The notes under the pieces: generated by a model
Databases searched by the model: none
What the model saw: only the letters and a program-made list of their open reading frames with translations
What the model was told of the DNA's origin: nothing
Translations under genes and position numbers: made by a program
Shown here: piece after piece, positions 2,089 to 43,212 of the stretch
How the letters are laid out: each line of letters begins with the position of its first letter
How positions within the stretch are numbered: the first letter of the stretch is position 1
NCBI GenBank assembly: GCA_028692655.1
Contig: JAQUWY010000001.1
Location: 24,116 to 88,115, forward strand
Direction: 5' to 3'
DNA: 64,000 nt
Origin: Candidatus Omnitrophota bacterium
GTDB taxonomy: Bacteria; Omnitrophota; Gorgyraeia; Duberdicusellales; 4484-171

Positions 2089-2300
2089 TTGCATCTTGCC
2101 TGCTTGCCACAAGTATAAGCGGGATTATTTTTTTCTTGCCTACCATTAAAATATTCAGTATAATAAAACTAATAATATTTAAATAACCTTTCCTCATCTG
2201 TAGAATTTGCTTTTGATCTGTGTATATCCGTTTTTTAATCCGTGAGAATCCGTGTAGCCATTTGTAATCGGTGTAATCAATCTTTAAAGGAGGGATTTGG

Positions 2301-3617
2301 ATGAGTAGAAAACTGGTATTTTTTCTGGTTGTTTTTTTCTTTTGTTTTTCCGCGGCCGCTTTTGCGGCGGTTGAAAACATCAAGGTAAGCGGAGATATTG
2401 GCGAGCAATACTTTGCCCGCGGCCTTACTCTTGGCCAGAGCTATAACGGAAGTAATTCTCATCAGGGTGTATTCTCTCAAATCCGCTTAAGATTTGATGC
2501 TGACTTAACCGAAGGAGTAAGCGCGACTGTCAGGTTGCTTAATGAAAGGCTTTGGAATGCCGAAGATTCAAATGATGATAAAGAATCTTTAAATTTAGAT
2601 TTAGGTTATATTGAATTAAAAGAGTTTTTCTATCAACCCTTAACTTTAATTGTCGGCCGCCAGAATTTGCGTTACGGAAACGCTATGATTGTAGGTGACC
2701 CTGACACAAACCAGACCGCCGCCGGCGAAACCCCTTCGATTGTAAGTGATTTATCCTGGAAAAAGTCATTTGACTCTATCAGGGCAATCCTTGATTTTTC
2801 TCCCTACACAATTGATGTGATTTACGCCCGTTTAAAAGAAAACGAAACCGGATATCGTGATGAGCAGAATTTATACGGCGTTAACGTAGCCTATGACTGG
2901 GCTATGGGTAATGGCGCGGTAACCGAAGGCTATTTCTTCGGCACTGATAATTCTGATTCTACCGGCACCTGGACCGATAAAAAAGACAGAGTTTATGCCT
3001 TGGGTGCCAGAACCCTGTTTCATTTGAGTGAAAATTTTACCCTTGGCACAGAAGGCGCTTATCAGTTTGGCAGAAGAGCTGTTAGTGCTACCAGCCATCA
3101 GTCACGCCGGGCTTATGCCGGACAATTTATCAGTGAATATCGGTTCAACAATAAATATGATGCCAAGATTGGCATTGATTATTCTTTCTTCTCCGGAGAT
3201 AAGCCCAACAGCGACCGCTATGAAGCCTGGGACCCGATGTATGAAGACCAGACTCCAGCTGAGCTGATGAATGTTTTGCTTACCCAGAGTAACCGTCAAT
3301 TGATAGGCTTTACCGCTTCAATGGTTCCGGTTGAAGATGTAATTTTGAAAGTAAGGTATGCCCGCGGCTGGTGCGTAAAGGGATTTACTTCTTCTATTAT
3401 ACAAGTCGCCGCAGGGCCTGCCGCCGGAAACGTCTATTATGTAAACGTAGGAAAGAAGTTTCTGGGTGATGAAATCGATATCAGCGCCAATTATGATTAC
3501 ACCGAAGATATTAAATTCAGCCTTTCCGGAGCCTGCCTGCTTCCGGGGAAGGTCTTTACCGGTGAAAACAACCATCCTGCCTATTCAGTGAGAGGCGGAG
3601 TAGTGGTTAATTTCTAA
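2301..3617 (+). CDS. outer-membrane beta-barrel protein (porin-like), paralog B
   Basis: 438 aa, same length and architecture as 717..2033. Signal peptide AFA|AVEN. C-terminal ...VRGGVVVNF. Blocks of near-identical nucleotide sequence shared with paralog A. Confidence 0.6.
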   Translation: MSRKLVFFLVVFFFCFSAAAFAAVENIKVSGDIGEQYFARGLTLGQSYNGSNSHQGVFSQIRLRFDADLTEGVSATVRLLNERLWNAEDSNDDKESLNLDLGYIELKEFFYQPLTLIVGRQNLRYGNAMIVGDPDTNQTAAGETPSIVSDLSWKKSFDSIRAILDFSPYTIDVIYARLKENETGYRDEQNLYGVNVAYDWAMGNGAVTEGYFFGTDNSDSTGTWTDKKDRVYALGARTLFHLSENFTLGTEGAYQFGRRAVSATSHQSRRAYAGQFISEYRFNNKYDAKIGIDYSFFSGDKPNSDRYEAWDPMYEDQTPAELMNVLLTQSNRQLIGFTASMVPVEDVILKVRYARGWCVKGFTSSIIQVAAGPAAGNVYYVNVGKKFLGDEIDISANYDYTEDIKFSLSGACLLPGKVFTGENNHPAYSVRGGVVVNF

Positions 3618-37462: not shown

Positions 37463-37494
37463 AAAAGCCCGCATTTCTGCGGGCCTTTTTATGA
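37463..37494. terminator. bidirectional intrinsic terminator
   Basis: aaaaaaagcccgc-atttct-gcgggcttttt. Lies immediately 3' of the minus-strand tRNA-Asn. Confidence 0.6.
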
Positions 37495-37500
37495 AGCCAA

Positions 37501-37805
37501 CTCCCCGGGTAGGGCTCGAACCTACGACCTATTGGTTACGATCTGACTCACATTACTGTGAGAGTCGGACTATCCCTTTACCATGACTGAACAACTTACC
37601 CCTTATTTTATTCGGGATAAAACTTCGCTTCGTTCAGTTTTAGGTAGCGAGTGTCTAGTCTCTGCACCTTCCCTTTTGGGGCTTGGCTCAGGATTGCCCT
37701 TCGCTTGAAGGGTTTCCCTGAATTTACTCGCTGTTTCAATCTCAATTTCTTGAGAAAGCTGCTAACCTTAACAGCCAACCGCTCTACCAATTGAGCTACC
37801 GGGGA
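37501..37805 (-). tRNA. tRNA-Asn (anticodon GUU) interrupted by a group I intron in the anticodon loop
   Basis: Minus-strand exons. 5' exon (37805..37771): TCCCCGG-TA-GCTC-AATTGGTA-GAGC-G-GTTGG-CTGT. 3' exon (37538..37501): TAA-CCAAT-AGGTC-GTAGG-TTCGAGC-CCTAC-CCGGGGA-G. Spliced product is a 73-nt cloverleaf with anticodon loop CUGUUAA. Confidence 0.7.
37539..37770 (-). ncRNA. group I self-splicing intron (cyanobacterial/plastid tRNA-intron-like), 232 nt
   Basis: Intron begins after exon U. Ends in omega-G (...GAGUCAGAUCG). Core AAAUUCAGGGAAACCCUUCAAGCGAAGGGCAAUCCUGAGCCAAGCC plus P7-like GCAGAGACUAGACACUCGC strongly resemble the tRNA-Leu(UAA)-type group I intron core (GGGCAAUCCUGAGCCAA). Confidence 0.7.
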
Positions 37806-38040
37806 ATAAATTATCTAAGAACTTTCTTCCTTGACCAGACTTGAGAAATTTCTCTCTTTGCTTGGCCTCTTTTATATTAGAGAATTCTTCGTAATGCAAT
37901 AAATCAAATGGACGATTCAACCTTGTCCAGCGTGTATTTCCCGAGTTATGTTCTTTTAAGCGAATCCTCACATTCTTTGATGTGTAGCCTACGTATCTTT
38001 TACCATTATGTTTGCTTTTTAATACATAAATAAATGGCAT
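37768..38040 (-). CDS. GIY-YIG nuclease domain protein (YhbQ/UPF0213-like)
   Basis: FIYVLKSKHNGKRYVGYTSKNVRIRLKEHNSG matches the GIY...YIG...R...E...N core. Same strand as the intron-containing tRNA and directly 5' of it. The ORF's last ~38 nt overlap the tRNA 5' exon, so the true C-terminus is uncertain. Confidence 0.55.
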   Translation of the reverse strand: MPFIYVLKSKHNGKRYVGYTSKNVRIRLKEHNSGNTRWTRLNRPFDLLHYEEFSNIKEAKQREKFLKSGQGRKFLDNLFPGSSIGRAVGC

Positions 38041-38323
38041 AAGCGCTGCCTATTTAGAGCTTCCGCCAGAGGCGGATCAGCCTATGGCTGAACCGGGGAA
38101 TTCAATGAAACCGTGATTTTTAAGTATCTAGTAAAAATCGCTTGGTTGAATTAATTCCGACTGCTATCGGGAAAACTTGCTTAAAAGAGCACTAATCTGT
38201 GTAATCTTTTTCGAATCGGTGTAATCGAATATCTCATTAAGACTGCTAATTATAGCGTATTTGATAAAAAGCGTCAAGATTTTGATTTTTGTGGCCTAAA
38301 CCTGAGGAAAAGCTCTAGGAAAA

Positions 38324-38488
38324 CAGGAGAAAATTTACAAGAGAGAGTACAAAAATATCTCCTTGTAAATATTTAAAGAAAGTACTATAATTCCTTTTGT
38401 TACGGTTAAACGGATATCTATGCATTGGCAATATACCCAAATTATTTAAGTAAATCAAAGCGCTAGGAACACCTAGCGCTTTTTTTTG
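38324..38488 (+). repeat. promoter-leader-terminator module, copy A (candidate small RNA or attenuated leader)
   Basis: 126 nt identical to 41537-41662. Contains a perfect sigma70 promoter ttgtaa-17-tataat. Ends in hairpin gcgctagg...cctagcgc plus a T8 tract. Lies upstream of lipoprotein gene 38551. Confidence 0.6.
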
Positions 38489-39101: not shown

Positions 39102-40430
39102 ATGGAGGCTGGCGTGACGAAAAAATCAGTTAAATTAATTTTGATAGTTTTGTTGTCAATGTCGTTGTTTGGTTGTGCTAGAGCGGTTAGAATCAAAAAT
39201 ATAACTAGAATGCCGGTAATTGTGCCCAAAAGCCAAGAAACAAAACCTGTAATGTTAAAAAAGGTTGTTATAAAGCTTAGCAGAGGCCAATTTATTGGAA
39301 GTGTTCAAGCTGGGATGTTTTGCATACCTCAAGCGCAGTTATTTTACAGACGTGGTAGATACAATGTGCCTGATGAAGAATATACCGAAATTTTGAATGA
39401 AGAGCTTGAAAAAAATGGATATACTGTTGTCGGGGACCCCACATCTCTTTGGGATGATGAAGAAGGTGATTGTGCAAATTTCCTAATAGGTGCACTCATA
39501 ACAGACATAAAGGCAAATGTATGTTATCCGAATTTAGGCTGGGGAGATTTCTTAACATCAAGTGGTGAAGCATATATGGAAATTGAGTGGCAAATTTATA
39601 GCCGTTTAACGCGAGATGTGGTGTTACGATTTAAGACAGAAGGAAGTTCAAAAACAAAAAATATGGAATATGGAAGTGATGAAGCGTTCTATCAAGCCTT
39701 TTCTGTGGCCACTAATAATATGCTAGCAGATAGAAACTTTTTTCAATTAGTTGCTTTACATCAGGATATTGGAGAGAAGGTAGATAAGAAAGAGTTAAAG
39801 CCTATACAGGTTAGTTATAAAAAAATGAATGAAAAGAATATCGGAGACTTTTCCGACAAGAACATGATTAAAAAAGCTAGAAATGCTGCCGTTACAATTT
39901 TTGCTGGGGATGGATGGGGATCTGGATTTTTAATATCCAATGATGGATACATTTTAACCAATGCGCATGTTGTGGGTGGTGCTAATTTTGTTCAGGTTAA
40001 GCTAGTTACTGGATCAGAAAGAACCGGTGAAGTTATTCGTAAAGACAAGAGAAGAGATGTTGCCCTCGTGAAGCTAGAAGCTGACCTATACCCGTATATT
40101 GTTTTGAGCGACAGCTCTCTTTTATCAATTAGCGATGAAGTTTTCGCTATTGGTACACCTAAGAAAGAAAAATATTCTAATACTGTTTCCAAGGGTATCG
40201 TTAGTAGCTTTCGAGTCGATGAAGGTATCAGATATATACAAAGTGATGTTACTGTACATCCAGGTAATTCAGGTGGTCCTCTAATTTCAGAAAAAAGTGG
40301 GGCTGTTGGAATAACGGTACAGGCATATCCCATTATTGCTGCTGGCAGGGACAGAGTTGGAATTGGTTTGAATTATTTTATTCCTGTCGAGGAAGCTTTA
40401 GACATATTGAAAATTAAAAAAGCAGAATAG
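39102..40430 (+). CDS. trypsin-like serine protease (S1 family) lipoprotein with ~230-aa N-terminal domain
   Basis: Lipobox LFGCARA. Catalytic-triad contexts TNAHVV (His), RDVAL (Asp) and GNSGGPL (Ser). Confidence 0.75.
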   Translation: MEAGVTKKSVKLILIVLLSMSLFGCARAVRIKNITRMPVIVPKSQETKPVMLKKVVIKLSRGQFIGSVQAGMFCIPQAQLFYRRGRYNVPDEEYTEILNEELEKNGYTVVGDPTSLWDDEEGDCANFLIGALITDIKANVCYPNLGWGDFLTSSGEAYMEIEWQIYSRLTRDVVLRFKTEGSSKTKNMEYGSDEAFYQAFSVATNNMLADRNFFQLVALHQDIGEKVDKKELKPIQVSYKKMNEKNIGDFSDKNMIKKARNAAVTIFAGDGWGSGFLISNDGYILTNAHVVGGANFVQVKLVTGSERTGEVIRKDKRRDVALVKLEADLYPYIVLSDSSLLSISDEVFAIGTPKKEKYSNTVSKGIVSSFRVDEGIRYIQSDVTVHPGNSGGPLISEKSGAVGITVQAYPIIAAGRDRVGIGLNYFIPVEEALDILKIKKAE

Positions 40431-40456
40431 AGACTCTTAATAATAAAAGGGACATA

Positions 40457-41530
40457 AAAGGGACGGAGTTAACTTAATAACTTATGGACATAGTTAATAC
40501 TTTCTGTAAAATGATTATATGCCAAGAAACAAACGATTAAACGTTATTGGCGGTGTATATCATGTATTTACTCGGGGAATAGAGCGTAAAGAGATATTTA
40601 AAGATTCAACCGACCGTGAAGAATTCTTATCCCGCCTTGCTGATACGCTAGATAAAACAAAATCAACCTGTTATGCCTGGGCATTGATGCCTAATCATGT
40701 TCATATTATGCTTCGTCCTGGCAAGAGAACCTTAACTGATATAGCCCGAAGAATATTCACCGGCTATGCTGTATATTTCAACATCAGACATAAACGTAGA
40801 GGGTATCTTTACCAGAACCGATATAAATCAATTCTTTGCCAAGAGGACATATATTTTGAAGAACTTATAAGATATATCCACTTAAACCCTTTAAAAGCTA
40901 AAATAGTATCAACAATCAGCCAATTAGATAAATACCCTTGGACTGGTCATTTTACAATAATGAGTAGTAAAAATTGTCCTTGGCAGAATATAGATGAAGT
41001 ATTGCTTCGCTTTTCGAAGAAAAAGGGAAAAGCGGTAGCTGCCTACAGAGATTTTATAAAAGAAGGCGTAGGCAAAAAGTCTATGGTAGACTTTTTAGGT
41101 GGCGGATTGATAAGAAGTGCCGGCGGCTGGAGCGAACTTGCTGCCATGAGGCGTAAAAAAGATTATTGGCGGGGAGACGAGAGAATACTAGGGGGCGATT
41201 CATTTGTTAATCAGGTATTGAATGAATACGAGGAGAAAATGGATCAAAAAGATAAGCTAAGGAGAGCGGGCTGGGATTTAACTAAGGTAATCCATAAGGT
41301 ATGTTGCGAATTGGCCATAAGTGAGGAAGACATCTACAAAAAAGGCAGAAACAATATATACTCAGAAGCCAAAGCCTTGATTTGTTACCTTGCCAATAAA
41401 AAGCTCGGTATCAGCGGAGCCCAAATAGCCAAAAGGCTTAGAATATCTCAACCGGCGGTAGCCAAGTATATGATTAAAGAGATTGTGAGGGAGAGGGGAA
41501 ATAAGTTATTAAGTTAACTCCGTCCCCTCC
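40457..41530 (+). mobile_element. IS element with ~25-bp terminal inverted repeats carrying an IS200-like (HUH/Y1) transposase gene
   Basis: Left end aagggacggagttaacttaataactta (40457-40483). Right end taagttattaagttaactccgtccc (41503-41527), a perfect inverted copy. Single ORF between them. Confidence 0.6.
40519..41517 (+). CDS. IS200-like / REP-associated tyrosine (HUH) transposase with C-terminal DnaA-domain-IV-like HTH
   Basis: GVYHVFTRG. HUH motif NHVHIML. YLYQNRY catalytic Tyr region. C-terminal ...AKALICYLANKKLGISGAQIAKRLRISQPAV resembles a DnaA C-terminal HTH. Confidence 0.7.
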   Translation: MPRNKRLNVIGGVYHVFTRGIERKEIFKDSTDREEFLSRLADTLDKTKSTCYAWALMPNHVHIMLRPGKRTLTDIARRIFTGYAVYFNIRHKRRGYLYQNRYKSILCQEDIYFEELIRYIHLNPLKAKIVSTISQLDKYPWTGHFTIMSSKNCPWQNIDEVLLRFSKKKGKAVAAYRDFIKEGVGKKSMVDFLGGGLIRSAGGWSELAAMRRKKDYWRGDERILGGDSFVNQVLNEYEEKMDQKDKLRRAGWDLTKVIHKVCCELAISEEDIYKKGRNNIYSEAKALICYLANKKLGISGAQIAKRLRISQPAVAKYMIKEIVRERGNKLLS

Positions 41531-41536
41531 TCCTCA

Positions 41537-41699
41537 CAGGAGAAAATTTACAAGAGAGAGTACAAAAATATCTCCTTGTAAATATTTAAAGAAAGTACTA
41601 TAATTCCTTTTGTTACGGTTAAACGGATATCTATGCATTGGCAATATACCCAAATTATTTAAAGAATTTAAAGCGCTAGGTGCCCCTAGCGCTTTTTTT
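41537..41699 (+). repeat. promoter-leader-terminator module, copy B
   Basis: Same 126-nt sequence as copy A, then a variant terminator hairpin gcgctagg-tgcc-cctagcgc plus a T tract. Lies upstream of lipoprotein operon 41750. Confidence 0.6.
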
Positions 41700-41749: not shown

Positions 41750-42154
41750 ATGAAGATATTCTATATAACTTTTGTTGCTCTAATGATTTTTAGTGGCTGT
41801 GCATCTGCTAGCAAGCATAGGCAGAATGTCCAAGATGATACCGGAGAGCGCATAACGGTTGGAAAGGTTCAACGAGAAATACGCGTAGGCATGCCATCAG
41901 CTCAGGTTGCTGAAATTCTGGGATCTCCAAATGTTGTGAGTACCGATGAAGAGAGGCGAGAAGTTTGGCTTTACGACAAAATTTCTACTGATGTCAGTTA
42001 TTCAAAAAGTGAAGCTGGCGCAGGACTCCTAATTATTGGCGGTAGTGGGGCTTCAGGAGCGCAATCAACATCACAGAGGACTCTGACAGTTATAATAAAA
42101 TTCGATAAAGATAATAAGGTTCGTGACTTTGCATATCATACATCACGATTTTAA
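41750..42154 (+). CDS. lipoprotein with BamE/SmpA-OmlA-like domain
   Basis: Lipobox IFSGCASA. GMPSAQVAEILGSPN resembles the BamE motif (GMT..QV...LGTP). Confidence 0.45.
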   Translation: MKIFYITFVALMIFSGCASASKHRQNVQDDTGERITVGKVQREIRVGMPSAQVAEILGSPNVVSTDEERREVWLYDKISTDVSYSKSEAGAGLLIIGGSGASGAQSTSQRTLTVIIKFDKDNKVRDFAYHTSRF

Positions 42155-42158
42155 AATA

Positions 42159-42713
42159 ATGTTGTTACGTGTCTCAAAATTACTCCCGTTAATTATTATC
42201 AGTTGTTTTTTGTCCGGGTGTGTTAGTGCTCCAAAAGGTTTTCTAAAGTTTCCTGAAACATATCTTGAAAAGCGGCAATTGCAAATACGGCAATATGATA
42301 CAACAGATGAAGAAAAAATTATTATTTCTGTAGCAGGAGTTTTGCAAGATTTAGGATTTATGCTTGATGATAGCGAAACAGAAGTGGGTTTGGTGGTTGC
42401 TTCAAAAAAAGCTGATGCTACTGACGGTGGGCAAATTGCAACTGCTTTTTTTATCGACTTGCTAGCCGCGTTGGGTGGTTCGTATTCAAACGCATCAGCC
42501 AATGTTGATGCTGTACAGCATGTTAAAGCCTCTGTAATTGTTAAACCTAGCCTTGAAGGTGGCAGAACTGTTGTTCGTGTGACTTTTCAGCGTATTGTTT
42601 GGAATGTCAGCAATAAAATTAATAGAGTGGAAACTGTAGACGAACCCGAGATTTACCAGAAGTTTTTTGATAGTCTATCAAAATCGATATTTTTGGAGGC
42701 ACATTCAATATGA
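42159..42713 (+). CDS. hypothetical lipoprotein (paralog family with 42710..43138)
   Basis: Lipobox FLSGCVSAP. Shares DTTDEE...QDLGF...YQKFFDSLSKSIFLEAH with the next ORF. Confidence 0.45.
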   Translation: MLLRVSKLLPLIIISCFLSGCVSAPKGFLKFPETYLEKRQLQIRQYDTTDEEKIIISVAGVLQDLGFMLDDSETEVGLVVASKKADATDGGQIATAFFIDLLAALGGSYSNASANVDAVQHVKASVIVKPSLEGGRTVVRVTFQRIVWNVSNKINRVETVDEPEIYQKFFDSLSKSIFLEAHSI

Positions 42714-43138
42714 ATAGACAGAGTAAAAAAATGTTTTTTACAATATTCTTAGTTGTTTTTCTTGCAGGTTGCGCTTCGACTTCACAAAAGGCATTTGTGA
42801 CTAACGAGAGCCAGGTTATGCTGAGAAGTATGCAGACGAGGGCATTTGATACAACAAATAAAAAAGCGATGATGCAAACAGTTATTAGCACAATGCAGGA
42901 TTTAGAATTTGTTATTGATAAAGCAGATTTTATGCTTGGGTCGGTGACCGGTACAAAATTTTTAGGATATGCCGTTATAAAAATGACAGTAACGATTAGG
43001 CCTCGAGGAAAGACTCAATTATTAGTAAGAGCAAACGCTCAGCATGGGATAAATTCTATTAATGATGCCGAAACCTATCAAGATTTCTTTACCGCTTTAG
43101 GAAAGTCATTATTTCTTACAGCTCACCAAGTGGATTAG
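42710..43138 (+). CDS. hypothetical lipoprotein (paralog of 42159..42713)
   Basis: Lipobox FLAGCAST. C-terminal YQDFFTALGKSLFLTAH. Overlaps the upstream stop. Confidence 0.45.
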   Translation: MNRQSKKMFFTIFLVVFLAGCASTSQKAFVTNESQVMLRSMQTRAFDTTNKKAMMQTVISTMQDLEFVIDKADFMLGSVTGTKFLGYAVIKMTVTIRPRGKTQLLVRANAQHGINSINDAETYQDFFTALGKSLFLTAHQVD

Positions 43139-43184
43139 ATGTTTTTACAACCGATAGAATTCAGGAGGGCAGAGTACTTATTTC

Positions 43185-43212
43185 GAATTAAGTAATACGT
43201 CCCCTCCTCCAA
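43185..43212 (+). repeat. possible solo IS-end remnant
   Basis: gaattaagtaatacgtcccctcctcc shares cgtcccctcctcc plus a taagt(a/t)a prefix with the right end of the IS at 41503-41536. Confidence 0.3.

Follow-up and report, generated by a model that had tools for sequence, protein, structure and literature searches.

We analyzed a 64,000-nt stretch of contig JAQUWY010000001.1 from the assembly of a Candidatus Omnitrophota bacterium (hereafter the window, meaning the whole stretch at its full length), and focused on a compact unit of 1,067 bp (40460-41526) that is bracketed by a perfect 26-nt inverted repeat, with 1015 nt separating the two arms, and holds a single gene for a protein with a Y1 HUH nuclease domain and a C-terminal helix-turn-helix (HTH) domain resembling domain IV of DnaA. 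Coordinates are positions within the 64-kb window, and L-numbers denote fetched relative loci or metagenome stretches. The architecture has already been published. Passages of Di Nocera et al. (2013, PMC3733652) describe RAYT-like genes that have long terminal inverted repeats (TIRs) on either side instead of repetitive extragenic palindromes (REPs), name these genes TIRYTs and call the units TIRtrons; the element in the window is a further Omnitrophota example of this class, which received its name in 2013 and its classification from Quentin et al. (2018, PMC6006769).

Anatomy of the element and its protein

The element consists of the following features, the gene being taken from the list of open reading frames (ORFs).

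40460-40485, plus strand: left TIR, 26 nt (GGGACGGAGTTAACTTAATAACTTAT), 100% complementary to 41501-41526
41501-41526, minus strand: right TIR, the reverse complement of the left TIR, holding the stop codon and the last five codons of the ORF (N-K-L-L-S)
40460-40465, plus strand, with a mirror copy at 41521-41526: invariant tip hexamer GGGACG; putative nick between TIR positions 6 and 7
40469-40484, plus strand, mirrored at 41502-41517: two tandem 8-bp direct repeats within the TIR (TTAACTTA, ATAACTTA), candidate HTH binding sites
40443-40459, plus strand: flank re-iteration at the left tip, ATAAAA-GGGAC-ATAAAA and then GGGACGG, a direct sequence reading, detected by the rule that gives the 27 cases described below
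40485-40512, plus strand: sigma-70-like promoter, TGGACA-16-TAAAAT, a pattern match at 10/12 consensus positions
40519-41517, plus strand: TIRYT gene, 332 aa, the sole ORF between the TIRs
40555-40881, plus strand: Y1 HUH nuclease domain (aa 13-121), Pfam PF01797 (Y1_Tnp), E = 4.6e-11, above threshold
41233-41499, plus strand: DnaA-domain-IV-like HTH (aa ~239-327), assigned from a family profile against the Protein Data Bank (PDB), sub-threshold Pfam matches and model confidence (pLDDT)

The 25-mer of the TIR occurs as two exact copies in the window, where 0.00 were expected (100 shuffles). The initial annotation had reported perfect inverted ends of 25 bp around a single ORF at 40457-41530. 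The ends are real and perfect, and the ORF list bears out the single ORF; a complementarity check lengthens the ends to 26 nt, and the interval proves 3-4 nt too wide on each side, the rest of the description being accurate. The promoter-like site begins on the last base of the left TIR and ends 7 nt before the ATG (33 nt lie between the left TIR end and the ATG), and relatives carry TTGAC(A/G)-17-TATCAT-like hexamers at the equivalent place. At the other end, where the right TIR encodes the C-terminus, K-L-[LIT]-[SN]-stop is kept in the alignment of 30 relatives. An Rfam search returned no matches inside the element. Folded as single strands, the left end formed no hairpin better than shuffles on either strand (z = +0.59 and +0.29), and the right end formed a modest hairpin (z = -2.4) built from coding sequence and flank, which we treat as incidental.

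An identical protein (100%) from a metagenome-assembled genome (MAG) is annotated as 'transposase [Candidatus Omnitrophica bacterium]'. Against NCBIfam REP_Tyr_transpos, the protein scored 67.8 bits, below the 80-bit cutoff. The HUH and Tyr motifs pointed out in the initial annotation are present and conserved: H60 and H62 (NHVHIM) and R101-Y102-K103-S104 are invariant among the 30 aligned relatives, Y102 within the invariant R-Y-K-S being the putative catalytic tyrosine. The motifs G-G-x-x-R-S-x-G-x-W and D-x-R-x-L-G in the middle region are invariant in the same alignment. An AlphaFold model built from the family alignment (mean pLDDT 79.6) is confident in the N-terminal and C-terminal helical domains (pLDDT 80-89 in the HTH domain), with a disordered linker at 194-226. 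A Foldseek search against the PDB placed E. coli TnpA_REP with a REP hairpin first (4er8_A, E = 2e-6, target TM 0.70), and the ISDra2, IS608 and IS200 transposases below it (E = 1e-4 to 1e-3). The label 'IS200-like' given earlier calls for a correction, in that the predicted fold of the nuclease domain is nearer to TnpA_REP (4er8) than to IS200, IS608 or ISDra2. With the N-terminal domain as a single sequence, a search against PDB sequences returned no match; only profile and fold searches succeeded.

The C-terminal domain, already called DnaA-like in the initial annotation, is sub-threshold in Pfam when the single sequence is used (Bac_DnaA_C at aa 256-307: 26.6 bits, under the gathering score of 31.5; HTH_23: 17.1 bits). 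A 30-sequence family profile (columns 239-327) matches DnaA domain IV of Aquifex and Thermotoga over the whole domain (E = 0.003 for chains 2hcb and 1l8q and 0.0095 for 2z4r; a further DnaA chain, 1j1v, gave 0.065), and many relatives have a precomputed PF08299 match. We therefore regard the DnaA-like assignment as justified at the family level, though the single sequence stays below threshold.

Terminal repeats and their covariation with the HTH domain across the family

We investigated whether the TIRs are a trait of the family. At least 8,000 close homologs exist, uniformly ~334 aa long, and an exhaustive search, counted in clusters at 50% identity, gave 932 at E <= 1e-30 and 12,686 at E <= 1e-10. 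Eighty genome loci were fetched, with proteins 42-65% identical, from at least five phyla (sources include Omnitrophota, Elusimicrobiota, Desulfobacterota, Clostridia and Methylomirabilota, among others). An unbiased search for inverted repeats around the gene reached a score of at least 15 at 65/80 loci, and a GGGACG-tipped inverted repeat with at least 19/26 positions matching was found in the same places at 58/80. The layout is shared as well: the left arm is typically found 57-62 nt before the start codon, and the right arm coincides with the stop codon or follows it closely (9 nt from stop codon to element end in many loci). The initial annotation had considered that the inverted repeat might be a single local palindrome; it is not, because a repeat of the same type stands at the same positions in 58 of the 80 homologous loci.

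Tip statistics were computed on 59 loci preselected for a GGG[AG]C[GA]-type tip (117 arms), and among these tip-selected loci the tip reads exactly GGGACG in 115-117/117 arms. Just outside the tip, on both sides, G is the usual base, with T-A before it; the window copy lacks (T)(A)G outside its left tip and has ATAAAA there. This preference could be an extension of the TIR or a target preference; IS200/IS605 elements insert 3' of a fixed tetra- or pentanucleotide. The inner TIR sequence varies among loci, yet it is made of two tandem 8-bp direct repeats (period 8 was the best self-match in 97/118 TIR arms, vs. 15/118 shuffled arms). When the window element is compared with L005, which encodes a 58%-identical homolog, nucleotide identity is 64% in the ORF and 56% in the TIR-to-ATG spacer, and the TIRs match at 25/25 positions on both sides, so that the TIRs are much more strongly constrained than the gene. 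A separate observation concerns L003, which of seven relatives compared comes closest to the window in ORF nucleotide identity (70%). Its inner repeat differs (GTCAACTA-GTCAACTA) and its TIR matches at 18-19/25 positions, whereas the more distant L005 matches at 25/25; the contrast suggests that repeat specificity may have switched occasionally.

The inner TIR sequence appears to follow the HTH domain. Across 58 loci, divergence of the inner TIR sequence (positions 7-26) was matched most closely by divergence of the DnaA-IV-like domain (Mantel r = 0.54), and this correlation persisted given Y1 (partial Mantel r = 0.35, P = 0.001), while that between TIR and Y1 vanished given the DnaA-IV-like domain (r = 0.08, P = 0.076); partial Mantel values on related sequences may be inflated, and the C-terminal domain evolves faster. 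Variants of the recognition helix, at about aa 306-318, go with particular repeat units, for example SRQAVSLL with GTCAAGAT-GTCAAG, SIPAVSKS with TTAACTTA-TTAACTT, and SQPSVSIS with CATAAAAn-TATAAC. Because the inner TIR sequence covaries with the HTH and not with the nuclease domain, these results support a division of labor in which the HTH would bind the two 8-bp repeats and the invariant tip would serve the nuclease domain.

Copying, flank re-iterations and a possible mechanism

All-against-all BLAST of the genome loci was used to examine pairs with unrelated flanks. Two contigs of the same MAG (L039/L051) share 95% identity over 1105 bp between unrelated flanks, and identity confined to the element, again with unrelated flanks, was found in L036/L064/L053 (93-96%), L021/L024 (91%) and L054/L060 (87%). 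Homology between copies ends at the TIRs, which shows that the copied unit runs from TIR to TIR. A metagenome scan with GGGACGGAGTTANNTTAATANNTTA matched at least 120 stretches, 80 of which were listed and fetched; the metagenome counts below are among the matches listed. One element has four different flanks in a single metagenome sample (L099, L106, L121 and L130), and many contigs terminate 65-170 nt inside the element, as would be expected of a repeat. Ninety-nine TIR copies comprise 54 gene-linked ends, eight rearranged or internally deleted copies, 33 with no TIRYT coding sequence within 450 nt, and four too near a contig end for classification. The gene-less class includes 60-bp dimers (L083, L094 and L116), a 139-bp mini-element (L088 and L116), and truncated ends. 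In L083, at 2194-3135, the TIR dimer (2194-2253) precedes ~860 bp without TIRYT similarity that carry a 144-aa ORF on the other strand, and another right-type TIR (3111-3135) comes after them; TIRs may here enclose a non-autonomous unit whose cargo is different. Target-site duplications, which the initial annotation had suggested looking for, did not exceed the mismatched-flank control at the 58 loci (k = 2-12, symmetric offsets), which fits HUH chemistry and not DDE chemistry.

The flanks carry a further signature. A tandem re-iteration of at least 11 nt reaching into the tip was found at 27/194 ends (14%; shuffled-flank mean 0.07, maximum 3), and a second GGGAC lies within 30 nt outside the tip at 39/194 ends, vs. 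5.2 expected. In 25 clean cases the layout is F-GGGACG-F followed by GGGACG-N..., where F is a variable flank of 6-19 nt that differs even among copies of one element; left and right ends are both affected, and the left end of the window element has the pattern. The copied tip is exactly 6 nt in 13/25 cases and compatible with 6 nt in ~20/25 with microhomology allowed. The duplication thus has one endpoint fixed between TIR positions 6 and 7 and another that varies, outside the element. We read the re-iterations as the probable footprint of a site-specific nick, and because the fixed endpoint lies exactly there, the nick would fall between positions 6 and 7. Had the other strand been nicked, inner repeat sequence would have been duplicated instead; no such duplication stood out in the end sequences viewed, no systematic search having been made. 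We also considered the re-iterations as excision footprints or target duplications and rejected both, the repeated unit being present at one end only and always including the tip hexamer.

On balance, we read the locus as probably a TIRtron, whose 1,067 bp move, or have recently moved, as one compact unit and encode a RAYT-type Y1 HUH single-strand nuclease fused to a DnaA-IV-like HTH (a TIRYT). In the mechanism that we propose, the HTH would bind duplex DNA at the two 8-bp direct repeats, which occupy TIR positions ~10-25, as the covariation suggests, and this binding would place the HUH/Tyr domain at the invariant GGGACG tip. The nick, as judged from the flank re-iterations, would fall on the strand that reads outward from the interior of the element (5'-...CTC^CGTCCC-flank-3'). 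The end of the element would then carry a 3'-OH, and the tyrosine would be joined covalently to CGTCCC-flank at its 5' end. Re-iterations would most simply originate when the nick is followed by short displacement synthesis from the 3'-OH into the flank and the tyrosine-linked 5'-CGTCCC end is rejoined to the new 3'-OH; a nick-extend-rejoin scheme has been proposed for TnpA_REP-driven amplification of BIMEs (PMC3333891). Because the repeats are inverted, the two ends would be cut on opposite strands, unlike the one-strand cuts beside hairpins of IS200/IS605 elements. Since the left TIR directly adjoins the -35 box of the putative promoter, binding of the HTH there probably also auto-regulates expression. 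A broader proposal is advanced more tentatively: TIRtrons might form a large autonomous insertion sequence (IS) family (932 clusters at 50% identity) in which the DnaA-IV-like HTH is anchored on duplex iterons and Y1 nicks 6 nt inside each TIR, on opposite strands. This would be a mode of HUH transposition that is not known from any Y1 enzyme. To our knowledge, TIRtrons do not appear as a separate family in IS catalogues.

Several points weigh against this account of the TIRtron and its nick, in addition to the caution on the partial Mantel values given above. No biochemistry on any TIRYT or TIRtron turned up in the literature searched, so that every step of the mechanism is an inference. To date, cutting by Y1 HUH enzymes has been found only on single strands that a hairpin presents (PMC3333891); no hairpin is predicted at the left end of the TIRtron, which leaves the exposure of the strand unexplained. 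A nick 6 nt inside the TIR leaves unexplained how the GGGACG hexamer travels with the element, and the re-iterations could also result if a tightly bound protein made forks stall or slip, though the products would be less sharply placed. Nothing points to recent movement of the window copy, which is single within the 64 kb and stands at the same site in two other assemblies (L001 and L002); exact-protein look-ups of two neighboring genes found no empty site for it, and gave only the same arrangement or contigs broken inside a 164-nt repeat described below. Some loci (L059/L063/L067 and L029/L034) occupy orthologous positions in related genomes with flanks 81-87% identical, which implies long vertical persistence, as for domesticated genes. 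Genomes also often carry diverged paralogs with a TIR each of their own, not identical copies (MGVF01: L006, L013 and L022).

Since mobile-type pairs coexist with orthologous positions, diverged paralogs and absence from plasmids (a plasmid collection held only distant partial relatives, with at most 35% identity and none full length, the clade being essentially absent), the family shows both IS-like and domesticated-like behavior. A domesticated, immobile RAYT-like gene, inherited vertically and serving the host or maintaining dispersed TIR copies in the manner of RAYTs with REPINs, with the TIRs mainly as operator and recognition sites, is accordingly the alternative that survives best, although we consider it rather unlikely. 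It accommodates the orthologous positions, the diverged paralogs with their own TIR types and the rarity on plasmids, and also the one third of metagenome TIR copies without a gene, including REPIN-like dimers, the TIR copies occurring as singles, dimers and groups in the passages of Di Nocera et al. (2013, PMC3733652) on TIR families, the fold closest to TnpA_REP, and the left TIR abutting the promoter. It does not sit well with near-identical copies between unrelated flanks, two of them in one MAG, whose homology ends at the TIRs, nor with one element having four flanks in one sample and assemblies breaking inside the element. The gene and both TIRs are moreover always together at fixed spacing, and the 64-kb window has no dispersed TIR family, but two perfect copies and one doubtful relic.

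An ordinary IS200/IS605-type element, moving by peel-and-paste with subterminal hairpins and a tetranucleotide target, would make the inverted repeat incidental. Its Pfam Y1_Tnp domain with HUH and Tyr motifs, the missing target-site duplication and the Foldseek matches to ISDra2, IS608 and IS200 agree with such an origin; the left end without a stable single-strand hairpin on either strand, the symmetric ends (those of IS200/IS605 are asymmetric, with no inverted repeats; PMC3333891), a protein of 332 aa with two extra domains instead of ~130-150 aa, and TIR conservation far above that of the coding sequence make it very improbable. The contrast with IS200/IS605 drawn in the initial annotation is right in this respect, TIRs being present and no left-end hairpin being predicted. 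Still less credible is that the TIRs belong to a classical DDE-type element or to a miniature inverted-repeat transposable element (MITE) mobilized in trans, with the Y1 gene as a passenger. DDE insertion sequences and MITEs typically do have inverted repeats such as these, 26 bp long, and mini-elements without a gene, but target-site duplications are absent, essentially all 58 loci have no ORF other than the Y1 gene between their TIRs, at fixed distances, the stop codon of the gene is overlapped by the right TIR, and the TIR sequence covaries with the protein's own HTH domain. A chance palindrome or assembly artefact, for which the only point is that the window stems from a MAG, is already refuted by zero matches expected in shuffles and by the same structure in independent assemblies (L001 and L002) and in 58 other genomes.

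If the TIRtron reading and its mechanism are true, HUH Y1 enzymes would have a new way of working in which duplex DNA is recognized instead of a hairpin, the element would be a compact, sequence-programmable nick-and-join module, and its cleavage site would be readable directly from genomes. The pairing of domain and repeat, the phosphodiester and strand cut, and the cutting of the two ends on opposite strands are testable predictions. The family is very large in uncultured anaerobes, yet we found no biochemical study of it in the literature searched.

Sequence neighborhood and comparison with known systems

The initial annotation had noted a look-alike of the right end at 43185-43212, which belongs to the following feature.

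43160-43212, no strand assigned: possible remnant of a solo or mini TIR copy, in a weak hairpin that follows the stop codon of the gene ending at 43138 by 25 nt

The resemblance is partly real: the look-alike has an exact 13-mer (CGTCCCCTCCTCC) in common with 41521-41533 at the right end of the element and a gapped match of GGGACGTATTACTTAAT to TIR positions 1-19, the likeness past the 13-mer extending over the next ~13 bases of the repeat. Seven of the 13 bases, however, lie in the flank outside the repeat and six in the tip, and the hairpin is weak (DNA fold -6.5 kcal/mol, z = -1.46). This single instance may be a decayed solo or mini copy. We rejected the 13-mer, at 43198-43210, as proof of a second copy, since it is one instance and element-matching 13-mers at E ~0.9 are common in the window. 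Within the 3' end of a protease gene, and 112 nt upstream of the left TIR, lies another short sequence, GGGACAGAGTTGGAATTGGTTTGAATTA at 40348-40375, that agrees with the start of the TIR at 10 of its first 11 bases, a resemblance that is probably due to chance.

A 164-nt direct repeat occurs at 38323-38486 and 41536-41699 (96% identity), the second copy starting 9 nt beyond the right TIR. The repeat includes a near-consensus promoter (TTGTAA-17-TATAAT, 41576-41604), a predicted transcript of ~60 nt (41605-41669), and a GC-rich hairpin with a T-run (41670-41695), and each copy lies just upstream of a small lipoprotein gene cluster (38551 onward and 41750 onward). In two other assemblies, contigs are broken within this repeat, and a comparison with Rfam returned only sub-threshold, chance-level matches; it could be a duplicated small RNA or leader/attenuator. 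Within the lipoprotein cluster downstream of the element, the adjacent paralogous genes 42123-42713 and 42710-43138 retain residual in-register DNA repeats at ~550-nt spacing, and 42123-43138 looks like a tandem gene duplication. Farther upstream, a group I intron (Rfam RF00028, 82.7 bits; 37546-37780, minus strand) interrupts a tRNA gene not called by ARAGORN, with exons at about 37490-37545 and 37781-37815. Removal of the intron in silico restores a tRNA of 74-76 nt whose anticodon varies with the splice point (Thr-CGT or Ile-GAT), and a 90-aa GIY-YIG ORF (37768-38040, minus strand) lies immediately upstream and overlaps the 5' exon.

Among known systems, IS200/IS605 elements (IS608 and ISDra2) have in common with the TIRtron a Y1 HUH catalytic domain and the lack of target-site duplication, and differ in having no TIRs, asymmetric subterminal hairpins, one-strand cuts, and transposases of ~130-150 aa. 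RAYT/TnpA_REP (E. coli YafM; 4er8) is closer. It is the best structural match for the N-terminal domain, its gene has the protein's own recognition sequence on both sides, in two inverted copies, dimers and copies without the gene are dispersed, there are signs that it persists vertically, and a nick-extend-rejoin model of amplification has been published for it (PMC3333891). In contrast to REPtrons, which lie between GTAG-tagged REP hairpins repeated many times in the genome, the element in the window has no GTAG tag and no hairpin, and its REP_Tyr_transpos score lies below the cutoff; it also differs from RAYTs in its extra middle and HTH domains and in that the gene-bearing unit is found in several copies with different flanks.

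Iteron-directed HUH initiators, such as the Rep proteins of geminiviruses and rolling-circle plasmids and the Rep of adeno-associated virus, act at short direct repeats bound as duplex beside a conserved nick site that is cut by the HUH tyrosine. They are of the Rep class and not Y1, bind DNA by the nuclease domain or other modules, and replicate episomes. The likeness to the TIRtron is one of analogy only, as there is no DnaA-IV HTH in these initiators and the element here is integrated.

Quentin et al. (2018, PMC6006769) placed most TIRYTs in TnpA_REP subclass 2.1, which they equated with TIRYTs, and described members of 2.1.2 as having a Bac_DnaA_C/HTH_23/HTH_28-like C-terminus, a serine beside the catalytic tyrosine and no REPs nearby. 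The protein in the window is likewise among the longest Y1 proteins, has a Bac_DnaA_C/HTH-like C-terminus (sub-threshold) and a serine by the catalytic tyrosine (R-Y102-K-S104, invariant), and lies near no REP-like hairpins; we tentatively assign it to 2.1.2 on this shared domain organization. The doubt raised in that study, that the tip is unlike a DnaA box, is addressed by the covariation of the HTH with the inner 8-bp repeats and not with the tip.

The closest likeness is to the TIRtrons of Di Nocera et al. (2013, PMC3733652), whose passages on these units describe RAYT-like Y1 HUH proteins with conserved HUH and Tyr, flanked by long non-REP TIRs at roughly fixed distances that sometimes overlap the 3' end of the gene, and several differently 'decorated' genes that are possible per genome. 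Gene-less and dimeric TIR copies, too, are found here in metagenome contigs, with one doubtful relic only in the window. Some of the TIRs treated in those passages carry GGGGWSAS, which is not obligatory; the tip here, (G)GGGACG(G/T/C), agrees at 7/8 positions, with G at position 7 instead of the conserved A. The same passages report that no dedicated transposase was found for the 'CGTC-tagged' REP superfamily, which the tag at the putative nick (CGTC...) recalls. The 26 original TIRYTs were, by the same passages, from Acidobacteria and Proteobacteria, while those analyzed here come from MAGs of Omnitrophota, Elusimicrobiota, Desulfobacterota and Clostridia. In the literature searched, only Di Nocera et al. 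(2013) and Quentin et al. (2018) use the name TIRYT or TIRtron, and no later study was found. The under-described IS and the RayT-like transposase with its own repeat, between which the initial annotation had wavered, are therefore one thing, already named and thinly described, not new. The 8-bp internal repeats, flank re-iterations and homology boundaries are not mentioned in those passages of Di Nocera et al. (2013). New here are the homology boundaries at the repeats without target-site duplication, the covariation with the HTH, the flank re-iterations and the gene-less state of about a third of the metagenome TIR copies, which add to the published architecture a family anatomy (a tip and two iterons), a proposed division of labor between the domains and a cleavage site predicted from genomic footprints.

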